DNA of 64,000 bases from Candidatus Zixiibacteriota bacterium (lineage in GTDB: Bacteria > Zixibacteria > MSB-5A5 > GN15 > FEB-12). The translations under genes and the position numbers were made by a program. The stretch spans positions 358,004 through 422,003 of the forward strand of contig DAOSXA010000001.1 of the NCBI GenBank assembly GCA_035380245.1, in the 5' to 3' direction. Under the pieces are notes generated by a model, which had not been told where the DNA came from, did no database searches, and saw nothing but the letters and a program-made list of their open reading frames with translations. Below are positions 157-51,633 of the stretch, one piece after another. The stretch's first letter is position 1. Each line of letters begins with the position of its first letter.

Positions 157-1110
157 TTACCTGGTCAAAGTGTTGCCGCCGGTTGAGATGGCTTGCGACG
201 GAAGATCGCTGCCGTGGATCTCAGTGTGACATTGAGTGCATTTGGTGGTCATGCCGCGTTTGAAACTGTCGCGGTCGGACACACCCGCTCGTTCCGGAGC
301 CTGCGGTGTACTGAAAGCACCATCGGCGCTCTCCACGGTGGCATGGAAATGCATCGGATGGCAACTTATACACAGAGCCGGCTCGTTTTGTTTGAGCAGG
401 TTGTTGGCCACGGAACCGTGCGGCGTATGGCAGATCATACAATCTTCCATTACCGGAGCATGCTCGTACACGAACGGTCCTTCCTTGTCGGCATGACAAG
501 TGAAACACAATTCGCGCCTGGAGCCGTCCATGGTAAGCGCTACTTCCTCGCCGTGGACACCGTGGCAGTCCTTACAGGACAGCAGACCCGCACCGATCGG
601 GTGTTTCGAAGGCATGTGAGCTGCCGCCCGCACATTGCTGTGACAGGTATAGCATTTCTCCTCGGTCGGAAGTGCCGATTCCGCTGCCGGTTGGTGTACC
701 GTATGACAACCGGCACAGGTAATCCCGGCGTTTTTGTGCGCTGAGAAGGACCAGTCGTCAAAACGATGACCGCGATGACAGCTCAGACAGGTCTGACTGC
801 TTGACAGTTCGTCGCTCCGAGCCGGATTCATGATCAAATCCGGTTCTCCCCCGGACTCGACATGTTCCGTTCCGGAGCCATGACATGACTCGCATGTCCC
901 GCGCCAGGACTCCGCCTGACCCGAGAAATAGTGCCCGTGCGCAGTTGACGAAAACGCCTCAGCCACATCATCATGGCATTCGGCGCAGACATCGTCCGGC
1001 ACCGCCCAGGTCGCCGGTGCAACAAAAGCCGCAAAAGCGACCAGGGCGCAGACAATTAGGAGTAGTTTAAGCGGTGTTCCTCGTTGTCTGGCTGGTTCGA
1101 AACGATTCAT
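157..1110 (-). CDS. Periplasmic decahaem c-type cytochrome, MtrA/DmsE/PioA/MtoA-like
   Basis: 317 aa with a signal peptide. Ten CxxCH motifs counted: CAECH, CESCH, CLSCH, CAGCH, CYTCH, CKDCH, CFTCH, CMICH, CISCH, CTQCH. Size, haem count and the C-terminal CTQCHTEIHGS resemble the MtrA/DmsE family. GGAGG lies 4 nt upstream of the ATG. Confidence 0.88.
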   Translation of the reverse strand: MNRFEPARQRGTPLKLLLIVCALVAFAAFVAPATWAVPDDVCAECHDDVAEAFSSTAHGHYFSGQAESWRGTCESCHGSGTEHVESGGEPDLIMNPARSDELSSSQTCLSCHRGHRFDDWSFSAHKNAGITCAGCHTVHQPAAESALPTEEKCYTCHSNVRAAAHMPSKHPIGAGLLSCKDCHGVHGEEVALTMDGSRRELCFTCHADKEGPFVYEHAPVMEDCMICHTPHGSVANNLLKQNEPALCISCHPMHFHATVESADGAFSTPQAPERAGVSDRDSFKRGMTTKCTQCHTEIHGSDLPSQAISTGGNTLTR

Positions 1111-1124
1111 AATACCTCCAGATT

Positions 1125-1140
1125 GTTAGTAAACACTAAC
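1125..1140. promoter_or_regulatory. Perfect palindrome GTTAGT-N4-ACTAAC; candidate TetR operator in front of the cytochrome gene
   Basis: gttagtaaacactaac, with 6-bp arms. It sits 5 nt upstream of the cytochrome Shine-Dalgarno. The same arms recur at 1839-1854. Extra TTAGTA/ACTAAC half-site-like copies at 1186-1200 and 1219-1224. Confidence 0.5.
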
Positions 1141-1227
1141 TCACCGATTGCGCGTTCAATCGGCGTTGCTTGAACTCATCTCAATTAGTAATGATTAGTA
1201 GCCCCACTTCTTATCTTAACTAACCCG

Positions 1228-1818
1228 TTATGCTTTCAATCCCCTCACATAAATGGGGACGTTATTAGCGATAGCATCCGTGGGTTTGAGCTCTCGCCCC
1301 TGGTATCCCTTCCAGACCGTGCATCCCAACGCACAGTCAAAAACTCCCCCGATGAAACAACGCGCTGTGATCTCGTTGTCCTTCTTTATGATTAATCCCT
1401 CACTCAGTAACAAATCAAGTTGATTTTTCAGGAACTGCACGTAGGGACCGCGAATCATATTGAACACTTTCTTCGCCTCAGCGTGACCGGTCAGCGTGCA
1501 AAACAGCAACAGGCGACAAAGATCTTCATTCTCGCGAAAAACCGCGAGAATGTGTTCGGCTATAGTGGTCAGGAGTTTCTCGAGGTCTCTTTCATTCTTC
1601 AGGCATTCAAAAAGCTGATCCGTGTTCAAGCGATGTTGAATGGATTCCAGGACCGCTTCATACAACGATCCCTTGCTCTTGAAATGGCGGTACACAGCCG
1701 GTTCAGTAATACCACAGGAAGTAGCCAACTGCTTGACGGTTACCTTATCGTAACCATAGCGGCTAAACAGTTCAGTCGCTTTTTCGACTATTTGCGCCTT
1801 GCGTTCGGAAGCTTTCAG
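1228..1818 (-). CDS. TetR/AcrR-family transcriptional regulator
   Basis: The ORF track starts at an internal TTG (1728). The frame stays open up to a TGA at 1830-1828 and encodes a full TetR HTH (KAQIVEKATELFSRYGYDKVTVKQLATSCGITEPAVYRHFKSKGSLYEAV). No ATG/GTG/TTG lies upstream, so CTG 1818-1816 with GAGG 7 nt upstream is the most plausible start. Confidence 0.8.
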   Translation of the reverse strand: MKASERKAQIVEKATELFSRYGYDKVTVKQLATSCGITEPAVYRHFKSKGSLYEAVLESIQHRLNTDQLFECLKNERDLEKLLTTIAEHILAVFRENEDLCRLLLFCTLTGHAEAKKVFNMIRGPYVQFLKNQLDLLLSEGLIIKKDNEITARCFIGGVFDCALGCTVWKGYQGRELKPTDAIANNVPIYVRGLKA

Positions 1819-1931: not shown

Positions 1932-1969
1932 GAAAAAAAGAGACTGCCAAACTATGCTCGGCAGCCTCT
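1932..1969 (-). terminator. Rho-independent terminator of gene 1999-4593
   Basis: On the minus strand, stem agaggctgcc / ggcagtctct (one mismatch) is followed by TTTTTTT (A-run 1932-1938 on plus). Confidence 0.7.
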
Positions 1970-1998
1970 TTGAAAGCTATATAATATAGATGCAACGT

Positions 1999-4593
1999 CT
2001 ACATTATTACAACCAGTTTACCAATCTGGGTGTCGCGTCCGGGGGCATCCACCGTCCAGTAATAAATCCCCGAAACTACCATCTGTGTGTTCCGCGTGAT
2101 CATATTCCAGCTTTCATGGGTATCAGCCCCACTGCCGGCAACTTCATCATGCTCGATTTCGCGGACCATGTCGCCGTCGAGTGTAAAAATCCTGATGGTG
2201 CACTTCGGCGGCAGATTGGCAAAATGTATTTCCCTGGTACGATCCGGCGGACGGTCGGTGTCGACGCGGCCTTCATAACCGCGATCGCGATAACCGGCAT
2301 CAATACGATAGGGATTCGGATAGACATACACTTCCAGATTCTGGTTCTGAACATTATCCCAGCTTGCGATCGGATAAACCAACTGAGCATTGTTGGATAC
2401 TGATGTTTCGAGTGATCCAAGGCCGGTTGCCGGAGAACCATAGTCGAAGGCGGTCACGTTGACATAATACTGAACCGTTGGCAACAGATCGTCGAGAACA
2501 TACTCATATTCATAGTATTTATAATAACCGTCGTCGGTAGTATCCGCAGCGTTAATTGAATCGAGGTTGGGTTCATCCTGGAAAGGATAGATTTTGTGAA
2601 TACCGGTGTTCACACCAAGAATTGACGCATTATAATCCTGGGGTTCGAATATGAACACTGACTCCGGATAATCCGGGTGTACGTACGGATGACTGCGAGT
2701 ATAATCGAGGGGATCGAACTCGGTGTCATTACAGGAACTGCCATAGAGACAACGCAATTGTTCAATAGTGAACGGAGTCTCCTTGAGTTCAAATCCCGGA
2801 TCCGATCCGGCTGCCACATAAACGAGTTTATTATAGTCCTCATGATCGTACGATTGCATCATGGAGAAGCTGGCGGCACGTTCATCCCGCGCCAGATAAA
2901 CGCGATAACCCTCGAAATCCATCTCCCGACTGAAGACGTCTCGCGTAGTCTCCGAATAGAAGCCATTCCAACGAATCCTTAGAGATCCTACATCGTCACG
3001 TTCAACCCAGAATTCCGGCGCCGGCGGCGGAGATGCCCCTCGGAAATCCGGAATACCGTCTCCTTCATACCAGAAAGTATCACAGACAGTCTCTTCCTGC
3101 CCGTTGATCGTTACGGTATTACAGCATTCATGCCACTTGCCGGAGAATGAGTCGCCGTCCGTGTCAACTCCGGGATTATCGTAGACCCAACTGGCCCAGC
3201 GTGAGTTGAGGGCAAGATCGCTGAAATCCAGATTCGCATAAAAGGCATCGGGATTGTACGGCAAGTTGTTAAGGGCATTGTTCTCGTCCTGATGAAGATC
3301 TTCACCTCCGACGTATGCAAACGAAAGCGGGAGAGTCTGCCCCGGATTGATATCGAACGGACCGAATGAAATAAGATAACGAGTGTCATATCCGTCGGCA
3401 AAATCATCCGCCAGATCCTGGTTGGGGTAAAGCCAGAGAGTATCATTTACCTGAATCGAGGCGGTGTAGACCTGGTCGTAGTCAAACTCGCGATTGCGCA
3501 TGACATAGTATTTTTCTTCATCACCGACCGGAGTACCGAGATTACCGTGACGGAAAGTTCGAAACGGCTCGGCCAGTCGACCGACATTGGCTTTCTCGCG
3601 AGGGCCGAAATCCAGTGCGGCCGAAGTATTACCGATCCACCAGTTGAAACTGACATCCAACGACTCAGCCGGGGTACGTACGATTCGTGTCGCTGTCACA
3701 TTAGGACAGGGCTGCTTCGTGTCGCTCCCTGCCGGCAGGTAGCTGAAGTCACCATCGTTGTCGGCAATGAAAGCGGCGAAAACCGTATCGAGAAAAGTGC
3801 AATTGCCGTATTCGGCCGGATACGTCTCCATGAAACCACATATATCGTCCTGTGCGCCGTCAGAGGTTCTCCCTTCAAAAGCGACATCGGCATCAACGTA
3901 AATACCCATGTACACATCCTGAAGGTTCGAGGTGCCGATATTGGTAATCTTATAATCGAACAGGACGAAATCTTCGGCATAAGCGTAAGACCAGGCGTAG
4001 GTCGCCTGAGTTATCTCGATATCGAGCGGCTGATGCGGCTTGCCGGCAACATCAGTAATCAATCCAACTAACAATGTATCGGAGTAGGTCGCAATATAGT
4101 CCTGTTCCGAGATAGCGCCATCATATTCAGGGGCATTGGGATCACGAATAGACCGATATATAATATCCCCAAAGGGAGATTCATCCGGGGCAAATTCAGA
4201 CTCGACTGAATTCCAGCCGTCGGCTCCTAGCGAAACGAGGGTATCGCGATCAACCACCGCCCCGATCCAGAACGCAGCACCGTAAAGATACGAGATTCTT
4301 GAACCTATAGGATACTCACACGACGCTACTTCTTCACCGGTAAAGCAGTCAACTGCCTGTCCTTCCGCGTACTTAATCCCGAACGTCCCGTTGTTGTTCA
4401 CTCCCAACTCGATTTTGCCGACATTGTGACCGACCAGGCAATAAGCCGGTAATGCGGCTAATCCTCCCGGTTCTTTGCTTTGCTCGGAAACACCCGGAGC
4501 AGTTCGGGGAAACGCAACTGTCGCCAACCCTACGACAATGGCCAAACTCCCTGCGCACTCTCTAAAATATCGACTCATTCTCATAAACCACAC
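1999..4593 (-). CDS. Large secreted protein of unknown function with T9SS-like (FlgD-Ig-like) C-terminal sorting domain; paralog 1
   Basis: 864 aa with a signal-like N-terminus. No catalytic motif recognised. Asp-rich NPGVDTDGD stretch. The C-terminal ~110 aa carry YPNPY...CTIRIFTLDGDMV...VSGIYYWTV...GKLVVIM. Colinear with 4746-7340. Confidence 0.85.
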   Translation of the reverse strand: MWFMRMSRYFRECAGSLAIVVGLATVAFPRTAPGVSEQSKEPGGLAALPAYCLVGHNVGKIELGVNNNGTFGIKYAEGQAVDCFTGEEVASCEYPIGSRISYLYGAAFWIGAVVDRDTLVSLGADGWNSVESEFAPDESPFGDIIYRSIRDPNAPEYDGAISEQDYIATYSDTLLVGLITDVAGKPHQPLDIEITQATYAWSYAYAEDFVLFDYKITNIGTSNLQDVYMGIYVDADVAFEGRTSDGAQDDICGFMETYPAEYGNCTFLDTVFAAFIADNDGDFSYLPAGSDTKQPCPNVTATRIVRTPAESLDVSFNWWIGNTSAALDFGPREKANVGRLAEPFRTFRHGNLGTPVGDEEKYYVMRNREFDYDQVYTASIQVNDTLWLYPNQDLADDFADGYDTRYLISFGPFDINPGQTLPLSFAYVGGEDLHQDENNALNNLPYNPDAFYANLDFSDLALNSRWASWVYDNPGVDTDGDSFSGKWHECCNTVTINGQEETVCDTFWYEGDGIPDFRGASPPPAPEFWVERDDVGSLRIRWNGFYSETTRDVFSREMDFEGYRVYLARDERAASFSMMQSYDHEDYNKLVYVAAGSDPGFELKETPFTIEQLRCLYGSSCNDTEFDPLDYTRSHPYVHPDYPESVFIFEPQDYNASILGVNTGIHKIYPFQDEPNLDSINAADTTDDGYYKYYEYEYVLDDLLPTVQYYVNVTAFDYGSPATGLGSLETSVSNNAQLVYPIASWDNVQNQNLEVYVYPNPYRIDAGYRDRGYEGRVDTDRPPDRTREIHFANLPPKCTIRIFTLDGDMVREIEHDEVAGSGADTHESWNMITRNTQMVVSGIYYWTVDAPGRDTQIGKLVVIM

Positions 4594-4694
4594 AACCTCG
4601 CTCTAACTTGGCATTTCATTGAAGACGTATAGTCGGCTCGATGTATGCAATATAGATGGGAAAAAACTCTTGTACACAGAGTGTCTCGAAGCTT

Positions 4695-4727
4695 AAAAAA
4701 GGCCGCTTCTTAAATGAGAAGCGGCCT
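4695..4727 (-). terminator. Rho-independent terminator of gene 4746-7340
   Basis: Stem aggccgcttct / agaagcggcct with a 6-nt loop, followed by TTTTTT on the minus strand (A-run 4695-4700). Confidence 0.8.
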
Positions 4728-4745
4728 ATTATAACCATATTCAGA

Positions 4746-7340
4746 TTACATAATCACAACCAGCTTGCCGATTTGAGTCTCACCGGTCGAAGACTCAACG
4801 GTCCAGTAGTAAATACCGGAAACGACCATCTGGGTGTTACGGGTAATCATGTTCCATGACTCATGTGTATCGGTACCGCTACCGGTATCTTCATTATGTT
4901 CCAATTCACGCACCAAGTCGCCGTCAAGTGTATAAATACGGATAGTGCACTTGGGCGGCAGATTCGCAAAATGGATTTCCCGGGTACGATCCGGCGGGCG
5001 GTCGGTATCGACACGTCCTTCGAAACCACGGTCACGATACCCGGCATCGAGTCGATATGGATTCGGGTATACGTAGACCTCGAGATCATGATTCTGCACA
5101 TCTTCCCAAGACGGCAACGGAAACACTTCCACCGTCCCGCTGGTGACCGATGTCTCCAGCGACGCCAGCCCTGATTCCGGTGAACCGTAATCGAAAGCTG
5201 TGACGTTCACATAATATGGCACGGTCGGGAGCAGATTTTCAATCGTATACTCATACTCGTAGTATTTGAAGTAGCCGTCATCAGTCAGGTAAACAGTATC
5301 ATTCTCAGGAATCTGATCGTTGAGAATCGAGTCAGGAGTCATACCTTCATCCGGCTTGGGAGCCTTCGGATATAACTTGCAAATATCGGTAGTGACCCCC
5401 AGCTCGGAAGCATTGTAGTCCTGCGGTTCAAAGATGAGCATAGAGTCACCCTTCGCATAAGGATGCGAAGTCGTGTAATCTAGAGGATTGAAGTTCTCAT
5501 CATCACAGCTCTCTCCATACCAACAACGCAGGCTGTCAATAATAAACGGTGCTTCATGAAGTTTGTATTCGCCATCTGATCTGTCATAGACCAGCTTGTT
5601 ATAGTTTTCCTGGTCGTAGGACTGCATCATACTATAACTTGCGGCTCTTTCATCACGGGACATATAAACGCGATACCCCTCAAAGTCCGCAATGCGGGAG
5701 AATACATCTTTCGTAGTCTCCGACAGCAAACCGTTCCAGCGAATGTGAATCGTGCTGATTTCCGGACGGGTCACCCAGAACTCCGGAGCCGGCGGCGGAG
5801 AAGCACCCCGGAAATCCGGTACGTTGTCGCCACGAATCCAAATCGTATCGATGACCGCTCCCGTCGAGTCGTATTTCAACAAAGAATCACCGAAATCACC
5901 ATCACCGTCAGTATCCACTCCCGGATTATCGTAAACCCAACTGGCCCAGCGCGCGTTTAGAGCCAGATCCGAGAAGTCCAGATTGGCATAAAATTGATCA
6001 GGATGATCAGGTAAATTCTGTGTAGCGTTACCCTCAACGGTGTGCAATCCTTCACCCGCCACATAGGCAAATGAAATTGGGAGCGTCTGTCCGGCACTAA
6101 TCTCAAATGGTCCAAATGACAGCAAATAACGGGTGTCGTAACCATCGGCGAAATCTGCCGCCAGATCCTGATTAGGATATTGCCAAAGAGTATCGTTGAT
6201 CTGGATAGAAGCCGTATAAATCTGATCGTAGTCAAATTCGCGATTCCGCAACTGGTAATACTTATTGGCATCGCCTTCAGGAGTACCTAAGCCACCAGTC
6301 CGGAAATCACGCCACTCCTCAGCCCAACGACCTTTTCCCGGTCGTTCACGTGGACCGAAATCCAGTGAGGGGTTTCCGTTGCCGATCCACCAGTTGAAAC
6401 TGACATCCAACGAGTCTGACGGCGTACGCACGATACGAGTAGCCGTCACATCAGGACAAGGCATCTTTTGACCGGCATCGTTGGTGTAATCGAAATCACC
6501 ATCGTTGTCGGCAATAAACGCAATAAACACTGTATCCAGATACTCAAGTCCTTCTTGCTCGGTTGGATAAGTCTCAAGGAAACCGCAGATATCATCTTGA
6601 GAACCTACAGCGTCACGTCCGTCGAAAGATACATCGGCATCGACATAAATACCCATGTACACATCGGACAGAAGATCAGTCCCGATATTCGAAATTTTGT
6701 AATCGAACAGTACAAAATCCTCAGCGTACGAATACGACCAGGCATAAGAGGCCTCGGTCACTTCGATATTCAACGGCATATGGGGCCGACCGAAGAAATC
6801 GTTGTCAACACCTTGTGTTAACGTATCCGTATAGACTGAGATGTAATCCTCTTCGGAGATAGCGTCTTCATAAGCATCCGATTCGGGATCAGTAATCGAT
6901 CGGTAGACCATATAGCCGAACGGCGGTTCATCCGGGTACATTTCGTTGGCGGTTTGCCAACCGTCTGCGCCAACCGACACCAACGTATCCCTACCGACTA
7001 CAGCACCAATCCAGAATGCGGCACCGAACAGATATGAAATCTGAGAGTTCTTGGGATACTCACATGAGGGGACTTCTTCTCCGGTGAAACAGTCGACCGC
7101 CTGACCGACCGTATACTGATTACCGAACGTCCCATTGTTGTTCACGCCCAGTTCGATCTTTCCAACACGGTGCCCTGCCAGACAGTGGGCAGGCGACAGA
7201 GACATGTAACCCAGATCGTTCCTGCGTTGATCCGCCTCGAGGCTCATTCGGCCGAACGCATCCGCGGCCAGAACCACTAACATCACTAAAGTGATCAGGA
7301 TCAGAGTTGTTTTACGATAAAGCATAATCCTCGCGCGCAT
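4746..7340 (-). CDS. Large secreted protein of unknown function with T9SS-like C-terminal sorting domain; paralog 2
   Basis: 864 aa with a signal peptide (LILITLVMLVVLAADAFG). Aligns end to end with 1999-4593. The C-terminal domain is nearly identical (YPNPYRLDAGYRDRGFEGRVDTDRPPDRTREIHFANLPPKCTIRIYTLDGD...GKLVVIM). Confidence 0.85.
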   Translation of the reverse strand: MRARIMLYRKTTLILITLVMLVVLAADAFGRMSLEADQRRNDLGYMSLSPAHCLAGHRVGKIELGVNNNGTFGNQYTVGQAVDCFTGEEVPSCEYPKNSQISYLFGAAFWIGAVVGRDTLVSVGADGWQTANEMYPDEPPFGYMVYRSITDPESDAYEDAISEEDYISVYTDTLTQGVDNDFFGRPHMPLNIEVTEASYAWSYSYAEDFVLFDYKISNIGTDLLSDVYMGIYVDADVSFDGRDAVGSQDDICGFLETYPTEQEGLEYLDTVFIAFIADNDGDFDYTNDAGQKMPCPDVTATRIVRTPSDSLDVSFNWWIGNGNPSLDFGPRERPGKGRWAEEWRDFRTGGLGTPEGDANKYYQLRNREFDYDQIYTASIQINDTLWQYPNQDLAADFADGYDTRYLLSFGPFEISAGQTLPISFAYVAGEGLHTVEGNATQNLPDHPDQFYANLDFSDLALNARWASWVYDNPGVDTDGDGDFGDSLLKYDSTGAVIDTIWIRGDNVPDFRGASPPPAPEFWVTRPEISTIHIRWNGLLSETTKDVFSRIADFEGYRVYMSRDERAASYSMMQSYDQENYNKLVYDRSDGEYKLHEAPFIIDSLRCWYGESCDDENFNPLDYTTSHPYAKGDSMLIFEPQDYNASELGVTTDICKLYPKAPKPDEGMTPDSILNDQIPENDTVYLTDDGYFKYYEYEYTIENLLPTVPYYVNVTAFDYGSPESGLASLETSVTSGTVEVFPLPSWEDVQNHDLEVYVYPNPYRLDAGYRDRGFEGRVDTDRPPDRTREIHFANLPPKCTIRIYTLDGDLVRELEHNEDTGSGTDTHESWNMITRNTQMVVSGIYYWTVESSTGETQIGKLVVIM

Positions 7341-49096: not shown

Positions 49097-50116
49097 CTAA
49101 GCCGGTTGTTGGCTGTCACTGAAGAACAACTTCAGCATGTACCAGATTAATCCCAAAGCCAGTACGAAACAAAGCACGAAAACGATCAAGACCGACCATT
49201 GCGACCGGATCGGGATATTAGCCGGGTCCCAGAATTTCTGAAGATGAACAAGCCGCAGAACATGACGGGCCGAAACCATGGCCAGCATGGAAACGAAAAC
49301 CATCAGCCCGGATATCGCGAACTTCCTCTTGAAAAAGAAATGCAGTGAACCGAGCGACAGAATAAAGCCAACCGTCACGAGCCAGATTCCGGAACTTTGC
49401 ATAAACGGAACGAGATAATCACCCAGCGTGAATAAATAAATCAGCCCCATAACCATTGCCGCCAACATCCCGCAGAGAAAGAACTTCTTGCCGATTTGAT
49501 ACATGGCCTGACTTTTCCGGCCGATCCAGCCGACAAAGAACGCCCCGACGGTAATAGCTCCCAGGATCATGTGAAACCAGCGCACCAGATAGGAACCGAC
49601 CTCGGGATTCAACACGAAACCGGACTGGTTACCGGAGTACAATTGTTGCGTCAGTAAAGGATTCTCGGAGAGGCTGAACGATGAACTGTAAACGAACGAG
49701 ACATATGCCATCCCGAGCATTGCCAGACCCAGATAGATCCCGACCCGCTCCCTGGATTTAGTGAACGATGCTCCGTAAAGGAAATAGTACGAAAACATCA
49801 CAGCGGCTAAAATCACCAGCCAGGGCCAGGCCGTTACGATGGTCGAGGCGTAAACCTGCTTATGGAAAGTTAACTGTACGAACAGAAGCGGCGCCACCCC
49901 TATCGTAATCGTTGCGGCCATCAGCGTCGGAAACAGCTTAACGAAACGCTGGATCGATTCATCCTGCCATTTATTGTTGAACTTAGCCAGCAATAATACC
50001 AGACCGCCGCCCAGGACGAAATTCATAGCTGCTAAATGCAGCGTCAGCGTCAGGATATGCAAAACCGTGATCAACCAGAGCGGGGCCGACAGAAAGTTGT
50101 AGTCGGGAAGGTTCAT
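49097..50116 (-). CDS. Polytopic membrane protein; N-terminus paralogous to the upstream CydA-like protein
   Basis: 339 aa with about 9 hydrophobic helices. The N-terminal WLITVLHILTLTLHLAAMNFVLGGGL mirrors IAVIHVFVSHFAIGGGL of 50113-51633. 4-nt ATGA overlap with that gene. Confidence 0.75.
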   Translation of the reverse strand: MNLPDYNFLSAPLWLITVLHILTLTLHLAAMNFVLGGGLVLLLAKFNNKWQDESIQRFVKLFPTLMAATITIGVAPLLFVQLTFHKQVYASTIVTAWPWLVILAAVMFSYYFLYGASFTKSRERVGIYLGLAMLGMAYVSFVYSSSFSLSENPLLTQQLYSGNQSGFVLNPEVGSYLVRWFHMILGAITVGAFFVGWIGRKSQAMYQIGKKFFLCGMLAAMVMGLIYLFTLGDYLVPFMQSSGIWLVTVGFILSLGSLHFFFKRKFAISGLMVFVSMLAMVSARHVLRLVHLQKFWDPANIPIRSQWSVLIVFVLCFVLALGLIWYMLKLFFSDSQQPA

Positions 50117-51633
50117 AGTGCACCTCCTTCCGCAGCTTTAGTCTTAAACATGAGAAATTCCACGAAAGCTGCCGCCTCAGTGCTGTCGCCCGTAAACGGC
50201 GGCATCTCCTCGGCCAGATCACCGGCCATTTCGAGCAGGTCATAGATGTCCTGTTCACTGAGCCCCAGAATCGACGATGATTTATCATTATACCCGCCAA
50301 AAACATGGCATTTGCCGCAGCGCAGGTCATACACCTTTCGTCCCAGATCAACTCTCGAAAGACCGTAAATCTCAGCCACTGACCTATGATCCGTGTGCTT
50401 GTAAATATGGGCAGCGAGTAATCCGGCTTCATCTTCATTTCCGAGGAAGGGCGGCATGTTGCCGCGCATGACATGCAAACCGACCATCGTATTGGCAATG
50501 AGCTCTTCATCCATACCGTCATAAGCCGGCTTGAGCGCCTTGTAACCGTCGACCGTATGACAGGAGCGACAGGCATGACGAAACAAATCCGCACCGTCGT
50601 CGCCAGTACGGTATTTCATATTCAGCAAGAGTCCCTCCTGGAGATACTGATCGGCCCTGGCTACCTCCATACCGTTACCGTACATGTAATCGGAGACGAC
50701 ATACGGCTTGCGAACCGATTCGCGGAAGAATTCAAAAGCTCCAAACCACACCAATCCCAGCGCCATCATCACCAGCGCTACCGGCAGGGAAACCGCTTTA
50801 CGCAGCAACAGGCCAAACAGCAGCACCAGGACCGCCACGGCAATCAGCAGCTTGAAAGTCAGCCCCCAGGAAATAATCGGAGTCGGCATCATATTGAGCG
50901 CCGTCTGGGTGATATTGGCCGGGATGGATGCCCAGTACCAAAAGAGACTCGGGACCATGATTACCAAACCGACTATCGCCCACCAGGCATTGTAAGTCAC
51001 CGTGCGTCTTTTGAAATCGTCCGATTTACGCACACTGACTACTAAAAGGGCAAACAGACCGGCCAGCATGACACAAATACCCGTCCTCAGGATAAGCGAA
51101 GAGAAGAAAGTCGGATTGAAGAAACCGTCCCAGAAACTTCCGGTAACGATCCAGTCTCCCGGCGAGAGCATAAAACTGAGGATGCCGTTAATAATAAACA
51201 GCGACATCCAGGCCGCTCCGAAATAAATCCAGCCAACGGTCATATGGTTCCTCGCCGACATCGACTTCCAACCATACAGGTAGATTATGGCCGCCATGAT
51301 TTCGATGAGGAAAAAACACCATTCGGTGGCCCAGCCCCAGACGAAATTGTGGATTAATAATTCCGTGGCCGCCGGATTAAGCAGACCGATAATGAACCAG
51401 ATCCCAACACCGGTCAGGGCGCCGAACACCAGGGTGGTCAGTACGAAAAATTTGCTCAGACCCTGAAGAAACCCCAAGGCATCGGCATCGTTTTTCCTCC
51501 GGGCTCGAGTTTCCGCCACGGCCAGATAAAGGCCCCCTCCGATGGCGAAATGCGAGACGAAGACATGGATCACTGCGATACCGGCCATCAACCAGCCGTA
51601 TGACAGACCGGTGTCCCAAAAAGGATAGTCCAT
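50113..51633 (-). CDS. Cytochrome-bd-subunit-I-like membrane domain fused to two class-I c-type cytochrome domains
   Basis: 506 aa with about 8 TM helices. The N-terminal MDYPFWDTGLSYGWLMAGIAVIHVFVSHFAIGGGLYL is CydA-like by eye. The C-terminal ~165 aa (nt 50116-50616) carry CRSCH...GNMPPF and CGKCH...EEMPPF. Confidence 0.7.
   Translation of the reverse strand: MDYPFWDTGLSYGWLMAGIAVIHVFVSHFAIGGGLYLAVAETRARRKNDADALGFLQGLSKFFVLTTLVFGALTGVGIWFIIGLLNPAATELLIHNFVWGWATEWCFFLIEIMAAIIYLYGWKSMSARNHMTVGWIYFGAAWMSLFIINGILSFMLSPGDWIVTGSFWDGFFNPTFFSSLILRTGICVMLAGLFALLVVSVRKSDDFKRRTVTYNAWWAIVGLVIMVPSLFWYWASIPANITQTALNMMPTPIISWGLTFKLLIAVAVLVLLFGLLLRKAVSLPVALVMMALGLVWFGAFEFFRESVRKPYVVSDYMYGNGMEVARADQYLQEGLLLNMKYRTGDDGADLFRHACRSCHTVDGYKALKPAYDGMDEELIANTMVGLHVMRGNMPPFLGNEDEAGLLAAHIYKHTDHRSVAEIYGLSRVDLGRKVYDLRCGKCHVFGGYNDKSSSILGLSEQDIYDLLEMAGDLAEEMPPFTGDSTEAAAFVEFLMFKTKAAEGGAL

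Follow-up and report, generated by a model that had tools for sequence, protein, structure and literature searches.

Type IX secretion system (T9SS) cargo, such as the gingipains of Porphyromonas gingivalis, carries a type A sorting domain (PF18962/TIGR04183), a C-terminal beta-sandwich of ~80 to 110 amino acids (aa) with a PNP motif, a G-x-Y motif, and a K-hydrophobic end. SusD/RagB proteins are the surface binding partners of SusC/RagA TonB transporters, both in polysaccharide utilization loci and in the RagAB peptide importer, and TfsA and TfsB of Tannerella forsythia are tandem, T9SS-secreted proteins that co-assemble into a surface coat. Among other sorting domains, that of PorZ stays uncleaved and is anchored by PorQ (PMC10947112), and type B domains rely on cognate PorP/SprF shuttles (PMC12618676, PMC9143113). 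Here we analyze two tandem genes, A and B, in a 64,000-nucleotide stretch of a Candidatus Zixiibacteriota bacterium genome (contig DAOSXA010000001.1, positions 358,004 to 422,003; hereafter the window), which encode secreted paralogs next to two genes for dockerin-tagged enzymes.

For comparison, we called open reading frames (ORFs) in 86 loci (L001 to L085 and the window; 1.38 Mb) and classified them with hidden Markov models built for this analysis. The C-terminal domain of the A/B family has the same sandwich and motifs as type A domains, and a canonical type A domain takes the same position in relatives; the family differs by an insertion of 23 to 39 aa, by sub-threshold scores, and by occurring in Zixibacteria rather than Bacteroidota. 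Like PorZ with PorQ, PorU with PorV, and type B cargo with PorP/SprF, it has an atypical sorting domain, PorZ is the best NCBIfam and Foldseek match for its C terminus, and family genes alternate with PorV/PorQ paralogs in L063, L070, and L071. However, the passenger of PorZ consists of beta-propellers, and the family has adjacent barrels in few loci and none in the window, with retention of its domain a prediction. As with SusD/RagB, a family gene lies directly downstream of a large SusC/RagA-like TonB receptor in 5 of ~80 loci (L063, L070, L071, L079, and L082, but not the window), amid degradative enzymes and transporters; unlike SusD/RagB, the family is a beta-supersandwich and not alpha-helical and TPR-like, and its anchor is of the T9SS or dockerin type and not lipid. 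The receptors score 54 to 85 bits against a SusC cutoff of 368, and a large TonB receptor is absent from most family loci. Cellulosome anchoring scaffoldins (PF00963) are likewise surface-anchored, multicopy proteins beside dockerin enzymes, but no cohesin sequence or fold was detected in the family, and its body is itself dockerin tagged in relatives. In fold, the predicted supersandwich matches YidC P1 and the N-terminal sandwich domains of GH116, GH94, and dextran dextrinase, with extra helical inserts and no (alpha/alpha)6 domain. T9SS surface cargo next to dockerin enzymes is already known; the passenger family, the sorting-domain variant, and the exchange among three anchors are new.

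We tentatively favor, with a little less than even confidence, a reading in which A and B are T9SS-displayed surface passengers that capture substrate noncatalytically in protein or peptide foraging. Sec would export both proteins via the signal peptide, and the T9SS would then carry them across the outer membrane via a family-specific variant C-terminal domain, which a conserved insertion of ~25 aa sets apart from the type A sorting domain that it derives from. The passenger, which starts with the 430-aa supersandwich and continues through an Asp-rich linker to an FN3-like domain, would be displayed on the cell surface, where the supersandwich may bind polymeric substrate for proteases and uptake systems encoded nearby. 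The candidate partners are dockerin-tagged C25 and PPAD-like enzymes (elsewhere S8), M16 pairs, and TonB-dependent and major facilitator superfamily (MFS) transporters. The variant domain probably escapes cleavage and stays on the protein, with a PorV/PorQ-type barrel in the outer membrane holding it in the way that PorQ holds PorZ.

Domain architecture of the paralogs

The domains of B, and the C-terminal domain of A, were placed as follows, with confidence given as the predicted local distance difference test (pLDDT) of AlphaFold2 models.

7254..7340, minus strand: Sec-type signal peptide of B, residues ~1 to 29 (...LAADA/FG), with the cleavage site predicted from sequence
5931..7193, minus strand: passenger module of B (residues ~50 to 470), a predicted beta-supersandwich with helical inserts, pLDDT mostly 85 to 97
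5796..5930, minus strand: highly conserved, Asp-rich linker of B (residues 471 to 515; YDNPGVDTDGDG ... GDGVPDFRGAxPPPxP) with invariant D471, D505, and D509
5106..5795, minus strand: predicted FN3-like beta-domain of B (residues 516 to 745), split by a variable insert of ~120 aa; modeled separately, pLDDT 83.8
4749..5093, minus strand: T9SS type A-derived C-terminal domain of B (residues 750 to 864), placed by profile, hhalign, and Foldseek
4977..5054, minus strand: 26-aa insertion of B (residues 763 to 788; RLDAGYRDRGFEGRVDTDRPPDRTRE), between the PNPY motif and strand IHFANLP
2002..2346, minus strand: C-terminal domain of A (residues 750 to 864), with its insertion at 2230..2307

An earlier reading of the window from its letters and translations (the sequence-only reading) had described the C termini as atypical T9SS type A-like domains, and the comparisons agree. 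When we aligned a profile of 12 family C termini with a profile of 11 canonical type A sorting domains, whose source was divergent relatives within this same family, hhalign returned a probability of 96% and an E value of 4e-9 over a region that runs from strand IHFANLP through the C-terminal end. For the C terminus, Foldseek found PorU and the sorting domain of PorZ (5m11; E value of 4e-4, with 22% identity over 152 columns), and the NCBIfam model of the PorZ C terminus gave an E value of 1e-4, below threshold. The motifs occur in canonical order, and in three relatives this body is followed by a terminal Por_Secre_tail domain that scores above the cutoff of 27 bits (32.9, 37.0, and 39.2 bits). 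Homology between the C-terminal domain and the type A sorting domains of T9SS cargo is thus evident despite its sub-threshold scores.

The sequence-only reading had also pointed to an insertion of ~30 aa after the YPNPY strand. An insertion of 23 to 39 residues, mostly 25 or 26, was present in 160 of the 161 full-length ORFs from the fetched loci, compared to ~6 residues in canonical domains. The insertion is a signature of the family and is not peculiar to A and B. In the model of B, its pLDDT is low at residues 777 to 782.

The AlphaFold2 model of B was built from 42 sequences and had a pLDDT of 83.4 and a predicted template-modeling score of 0.78, with a helix at residues 2 to 31 for the signal peptide. 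Foldseek searches with the supersandwich of this predicted model matched the N-terminal domains of GH116 beta-glucosidases, GH94 phosphorylases, dextran dextrinase, and cyclic-glucan synthase, as well as the periplasmic P1 domain of YidC, with E values of 4e-8 to 1e-3, a probability of ~1.0, and 6 to 13% identity; the template-modeling scores of ~0.2 are low since one domain aligns. The predicted model has the galactose-mutarotase-like supersandwich fold. No (alpha/alpha)6 or other catalytic domain was found in the model of B. The linker, which coincides with the first domain break in relatives (profile position ~515), probably binds calcium. The FN3 matches of the middle domain were weak (best E value, 0.019), and when 40 diverse relatives were scanned against Pfam at an E value of ≤1, 3 gave a weak fn3 match.

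These data bear on whether the body binds or catalyzes. The first 750 residues of A and B matched nothing in Pfam or NCBIfam, the family profile had 0 matches to PDB sequences, and the translations of both proteins lack HExxH. The earlier statement that the body shows no catalytic motif is therefore upheld for HExxH and for the catalytic families of these three collections. Across 112 divergent members, D118, D172, N218, N316, Y361, D370, S408, D471, D505, and D509 are conserved at ≥93%, and no His, Cys, Glu, or Lys is. We favor binding over catalysis because the supersandwich is a noncatalytic or binding domain in all structural matches and because the conserved residues are limited to Asp, Asn, Tyr, and Ser. 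The body might instead be an undescribed enzyme, such as a hydrolase or lyase that acts on proteins, glycoproteins, or the cell wall, displayed by the T9SS or a dockerin like the proteases next door. We consider this unlikely, but it is a serious rival because of the high conservation and because dockerins carry the body, as they do cellulosome-type enzymes, in 23 relatives. The conservation extends over the full length and includes the invariant acidic residues D118, D172, D370, D471, and D505, and the body lies in loci of degradative enzymes. However, an enzyme would have to be reconciled with the absence of any match to a catalytic family, with structural matches to YidC P1 and to noncatalytic sandwich domains from enzymes of the GH116, GH94, and GH15-like kinds, and with the lack of conserved His, Cys, Glu, and Lys.

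The two genes and their family

The genes and their terminators are located as follows.

4746..7340, minus strand: paralog B, 864 codons (859 aa with the JGI start call)
4727..4700, minus strand: intrinsic terminator after B, 11 pairs, 7 of them G-C, and then a T run
1999..4593, minus strand: paralog A, 864 codons from GTG 4593, a Zixibacteria protein of no named family
1971..1937, minus strand: intrinsic terminator after A, 16 pairs and then a T run

The sequence-only reading had noted that A and B are identical in length. Both have 864 codons when each ORF is read from the stop to the first start, but the equality is partly an artifact of that rule. The start at ATG 4584 (MRMSRYF...) gives A a better signal peptide than GTG 4593 and is likely the true start, and the JGI calls on locus L001 are 848 aa for A (TTG 4545) and 859 aa for B. 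This locus (JGI contig Ga0116162_10000083, sample 3300009772) encodes both dockerin modules and, over the whole of their called lengths, A and B identical to the window copies, which places the source population in public data; because the proteins are identical and the gene order is the same, it comes from the same population as the window. No lipobox Cys was seen in the N-terminal sequence of A or B.

By BLASTP, A and B align end to end over 861 columns with 67% identity, 79% positives, and 25 gaps (68.6% identity in a global alignment), in keeping with the by-eye estimate of well over half. Synonymous sites, which had been noted to differ heavily, are saturated: by the Nei-Gojobori method, the proportion of synonymous differences (pS) is 0.77, which leaves dS undefined, while the nonsynonymous proportion (pN) is 0.215. 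Saturated pS with low pN indicates an old duplication under purifying selection. With pS values of 0.68 to 0.87 in each 100-codon block, the C-terminal domain included, we rejected a recent duplication or gene conversion. The terminators listed above confirm that each gene has its own hairpin and T run.

A homology search matched more than 2,106 proteins to the family at an E value of ≤1e-3. The best match to B was A's copy at 67%, and the exact A and B sequences were not among the matches. The best 120 matches are all 820 to 940 aa long, 55 to 67% identical, and free of Pfam domains; they are named hypothetical or are unnamed, bar one stray JGI label, and those with a named source organism come from Zixibacteria, GN15, or the FCB group. 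An exhaustive profile search found 5,402 representatives of 50% identity clusters at an E value of ≤1e-3 and 813 at ≤1e-30. A data set with one genome per species contained at least 545 confirmed relatives; almost every one of those listed is from Zixibacteria metagenome-assembled genomes (MAGs), and a few are labeled Ignavibacteria, Calditrichaeota, or FCB. These results show that A and B belong to a large, undescribed family of ~860-aa secreted proteins centered on Zixibacteria. The earlier description of the pair as secreted proteins without an assigned function is supported.

Family genes are commonly arrayed, with 2 to 5 copies in 32 of the 52 arrays that are bounded on both sides. For 66% of the arrayed copies, the closest relative lies in another genome, and the paralog lineages are therefore old. 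Tandem, long-kept paralogs of this kind would also fit a co-assembling surface coat, S-layer-like or adhesin, of the sort formed by TfsA and TfsB. The retention of 2 to 5 old paralogs across genomes, the high conservation, the T9SS-type anchor, and the beta-rich, Ig-like architecture all agree with a coat. On the other hand, conserved synteny with peptidases and transporters would not be expected of one, and a supersandwich that occurs alone on a dockerin, as described below, is easier to see as a functional module than as part of a lattice. We regard a coat as improbable.

Exchangeable anchors and dockerin-tagged neighbors

We determined which anchors the body carries from the 150 best cluster representatives, 126 of which have an intact N terminus. 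At the C terminus, 68 of these 126 relatives have the family domain, 23 a dockerin, and 13 a canonical type A domain, while 22 are truncated or have some other end. The domain breaks fall at profile position ~515, which leaves the supersandwich alone, or at ~730, which leaves the supersandwich with the FN3-like domain, and the supersandwich alone occurs as a dockerin-tagged protein of ~560 aa. Because the same body is found on dockerins or on sorting domains, it looks like a passenger module with interchangeable anchors, as proteases are.

Upstream of B, the window encodes two enzymes with C-terminal dockerin-like modules.

7808..10753, minus strand: PPAD-type peptidylarginine deiminase (PAD) homolog, 981 aa, with NIDO and Ig-like regions (Pfam PAD_porph, E value of 1e-28)
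~7811..8011, minus strand: type I dockerin-like module at the C terminus of the deiminase, found by profile
10938..16214, minus strand: RgpB-like C25 protease with a prodomain, 1,758 aa (Pfam; PDB 4IEF and 1CVR)
~10941..11147, minus strand: dockerin-like module at the C terminus of the C25 protease, found by profile

The deiminase matched PPAD (PDB 4YT9) at an E value of 7e-88, far better than agmatine deiminases, and in the PDB the C25 protein matched RgpB at 1.5e-87 and the RgpB prodomain at 3e-40. We ruled out that this C25 protein is PorU, to which its match was marginal. The RgpB-like gene lies directly upstream of the PPAD-like gene (7808..16214), and the dockerin modules take the place of the Porphyromonas T9SS sorting domains. 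Both modules are Cys-flanked double repeats (GDxDGxG..D..DL.YLV.Y.F), and a profile of 24 modules matched solved type I dockerins in the PDB at an E value of 4e-7, with 24 of the 25 top matches being dockerins or dockerin-bearing proteins. As single sequences, the window's own copies gave a Pfam E value of 0.14 or no match, and two members of the module family in L039 reached 44.6 and 39.8 bits against Dockerin_1 (PF00404; cutoff, 22.9). The dockerin-like repeats that the sequence-only reading saw in these two genes are, by this profile evidence, true relatives of type I dockerins. Modules of this kind end 54 ORFs, ~5% of genes, in the 86 loci (e.g., L028:211-2803 and L067:1149-18360).

From these neighbors, it had been proposed that the paralogs are the scaffold or receptor for the dockerin-tagged protease and deiminase, that is, surface receptors equivalent to cohesins. 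This proposal is in keeping with the true dockerin nature of the neighbors' modules and with the positions of dockerin-tagged genes: they flank the arrays of 17 of 78 loci, and their contexts vary (S8, C25/PAD, a 300-aa protein, or BNR/propeller). They make up 12% of the genes one position from an array and 10% of those two positions from it, versus ~5% away from arrays. However, this enrichment is only ~2-fold (odds ratio of 2.2, P value of 0.016, with shared ancestry uncorrected) and is inflated by shared synteny, with much of the signal from one inherited syntenic block, and most arrays follow M16 genes with no adjoining dockerin gene. The paralogs themselves have neither the sequence nor the fold of a cohesin: Pfam gave no cohesin match at an E value of ≤1 in A, B, or 40 relatives, and the nine-stranded jelly-roll of cohesins was absent from the Foldseek matches of B and of the middle-domain model.

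The body also bears the same kind of dockerin in the 23 relatives described above. One relative, P0152, joins the body to a dockerin-like segment (recognized by eye), a cohesin-like domain (Pfam E value of 3e-4; PDB matches to cohesins only, E value of 0.007), and a canonical sorting domain. Its cohesin-like domain is separate from the body, and a cohesin, where present, is therefore an extra module. A jackhmmer search with this domain found no relative in the 86 loci, and none of the scanned ORFs of the window encodes a cohesin, as had been noted from the sequence; these two absences count in favor of the paralogs as the dockerins' receptors. Taken together, we judge a scaffold or receptor role very unlikely.

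Gene neighborhood does link the family to dockerin-tagged enzymes. The PAD and C25 pair recurs beside one family gene in L011 and L012, in reverse order, and the full block of C25 with dockerin, PAD with dockerin, B, and A recurs on L001 only, the locus from the same population.

Secretion genes, gene neighborhoods, and meaning

Type IX export is strongly suggested for the lineage by PorV/PorQ-family genes, and we infer it for this organism. Such genes are widespread in Zixibacteria. For the PorQ-like protein of L053, which belongs to a Zixibacteria MAG, we found 511 relatives at an E value of ≤1e-10, many of them named "PorV/PorQ family protein [Candidatus Zixiibacteriota]" by NCBI, and the complete genomes CP070777.1 and CP070674.1 hold both PorV/PorQ-family genes and family arrays. 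In L063, L070, and L071, an operon with intergenic gaps of 6 to 70 bp (L063:2950-15446, L070:2903-15463, and L071:2866-15468) runs from a TonB receptor through a family gene, a PorV/Q gene, a second family gene, and a second PorV/Q gene to a gene for an unassigned protein of 620 to 640 aa. The receptors are 1,131 to 1,159 aa long with a SusC/RagA-like N terminus, and the interleaved PorV/PorQ proteins score 211 to 213 bits with NF033709 (cutoff, 90); in L071, the called ORF at the first PorV/Q position is 320 aa on the minus strand. It seems that every surface protein in these operons comes with a barrel of its own. Near all three operons lies a gene for an S8 protease that bears a canonical TIGR04183 domain. 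Our literature search found no paper that links Zixibacteria to the T9SS, type IX secretion, or dockerins.

We rejected the L053 PorQ-family gene as a specific link, because it sits in a hutU-hutI-LptE-PorQ housekeeping block that lacks a family gene elsewhere; its proximity in L053 is probably incidental, since PorQ belongs to the conserved lptE/hutUI block. The single-copy PorQ-like gene is found beside lptE and hutU/hutI across Zixibacteria populations (L088 to L093, e.g., L088:7271-9415; L053:6641-8624). A conserved gene for a 153-aa protein of no assigned family comes after it.

The most common context of the family is a glycogen phosphorylase gene, two M16 genes, optionally a ~300-aa dockerin protein and an S8 protease with a dockerin, and then 2 to 5 family genes, with an MFS gene and then a conserved ~400-aa gene of no assigned function downstream on the opposite strand. 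The S8 gene with a dockerin followed by a family array was seen in many genomes. Other contexts are PAD with C25, both dockerin tagged (window, L001, L011, and L012), and a PepC-like C1 peptidase with an MFS transporter (4 loci). Among the 67 nonduplicate loci with context, an M16, S8, C25, PAD, or C1 peptidase gene lies within 3 genes in 27, an MFS or TonB transporter in 29, a dockerin protein in 24, and PorV/Q in 4. The ~300-aa protein is conserved, carries its dockerin at the C terminus, and often stands between the M16 pair and S8 (L002:6344-7249, L014, L016, L022, L024, L041, and L048).

Several results weigh against T9SS-displayed substrate capture as the role of A and B. The C-terminal domain matched Por_Secre_tail (PF18962) at E values of 0.0016 to 0.12 and 13.7 to 19.1 bits against the cutoff of 27, and TIGR04183 at 15.9 bits against a cutoff of 23. 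No T9SS core gene was found among the scanned ORFs of the window, and PorK/L/M/N, Sov, and PorU were not sought in any genome. The 4 loci in which PorV/Q adjoins family genes include L053 and not the window. The mean column identity of 54%, with paralogs at 60 to 70%, is unusual for surface binders and suits an enzyme or a lattice protein. Modules borne on dockerins elsewhere, as in cellulosomes, are mostly enzymes.

The rest of the window resembles an ordinary chromosome, with gyrB, recA, dnaE, secDF, rpsF, two-component systems, and a multiheme cytochrome. The paralogs are followed by genes for a TetR-like regulator and a 317-aa multiheme c-type cytochrome (157..1728, minus strand; paired CXXCH, NrfB/MtrC-like). 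On L001, the block goes on with more cytochrome genes (L001:12851-19573). The product of one of them, 855 aa long, has cytochrome c7/MtrC-like and Ni_hydr_CYTB matches. At 50113..51633 (minus strand), a 506-aa ORF joins an N-terminal part like cytochrome bd oxidase subunit I (the first ~230 model positions) to a C-terminal cbb3-type cytochrome c, and a 339-aa ORF with no family match comes after it.

A broader proposal extends substrate capture by T9SS-displayed passengers to a third class of T9SS cargo signal, a type A-derived domain that bears the conserved insertion, is left uncleaved, and is recognized by dedicated barrels of the PorV/PorQ family. The displayed supersandwich proteins would bind substrate on the surface for SusC/RagA-like TonB-dependent receptors, in a SusCD-like protein utilization machine specific to Zixibacteria. 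We hold this extension to be rather unlikely. If it is true, the machine would work beside dockerin-tethered gingipain-, PPAD-, and subtilisin-type enzymes.

With thousands of members and several copies per genome, the family, which no database names, is apparently a characteristic surface family of an uncultured phylum that is widespread. If the family and its sorting-domain variant were given names, genomes of Zixibacteria and others of the FCB group could be annotated better. Three anchors on one passenger, together with the PorV/PorQ-interleaved operons, make a concrete, testable case that could reveal how T9SS targeting came to diversify outside Bacteroidota and how a single envelope combines T9SS display with cohesin-dockerin tethering. 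With their proteases, surface proteins, M16 peptidases, and transporters, the loci are candidates for the harvest of detrital protein by sediment and digester bacteria.

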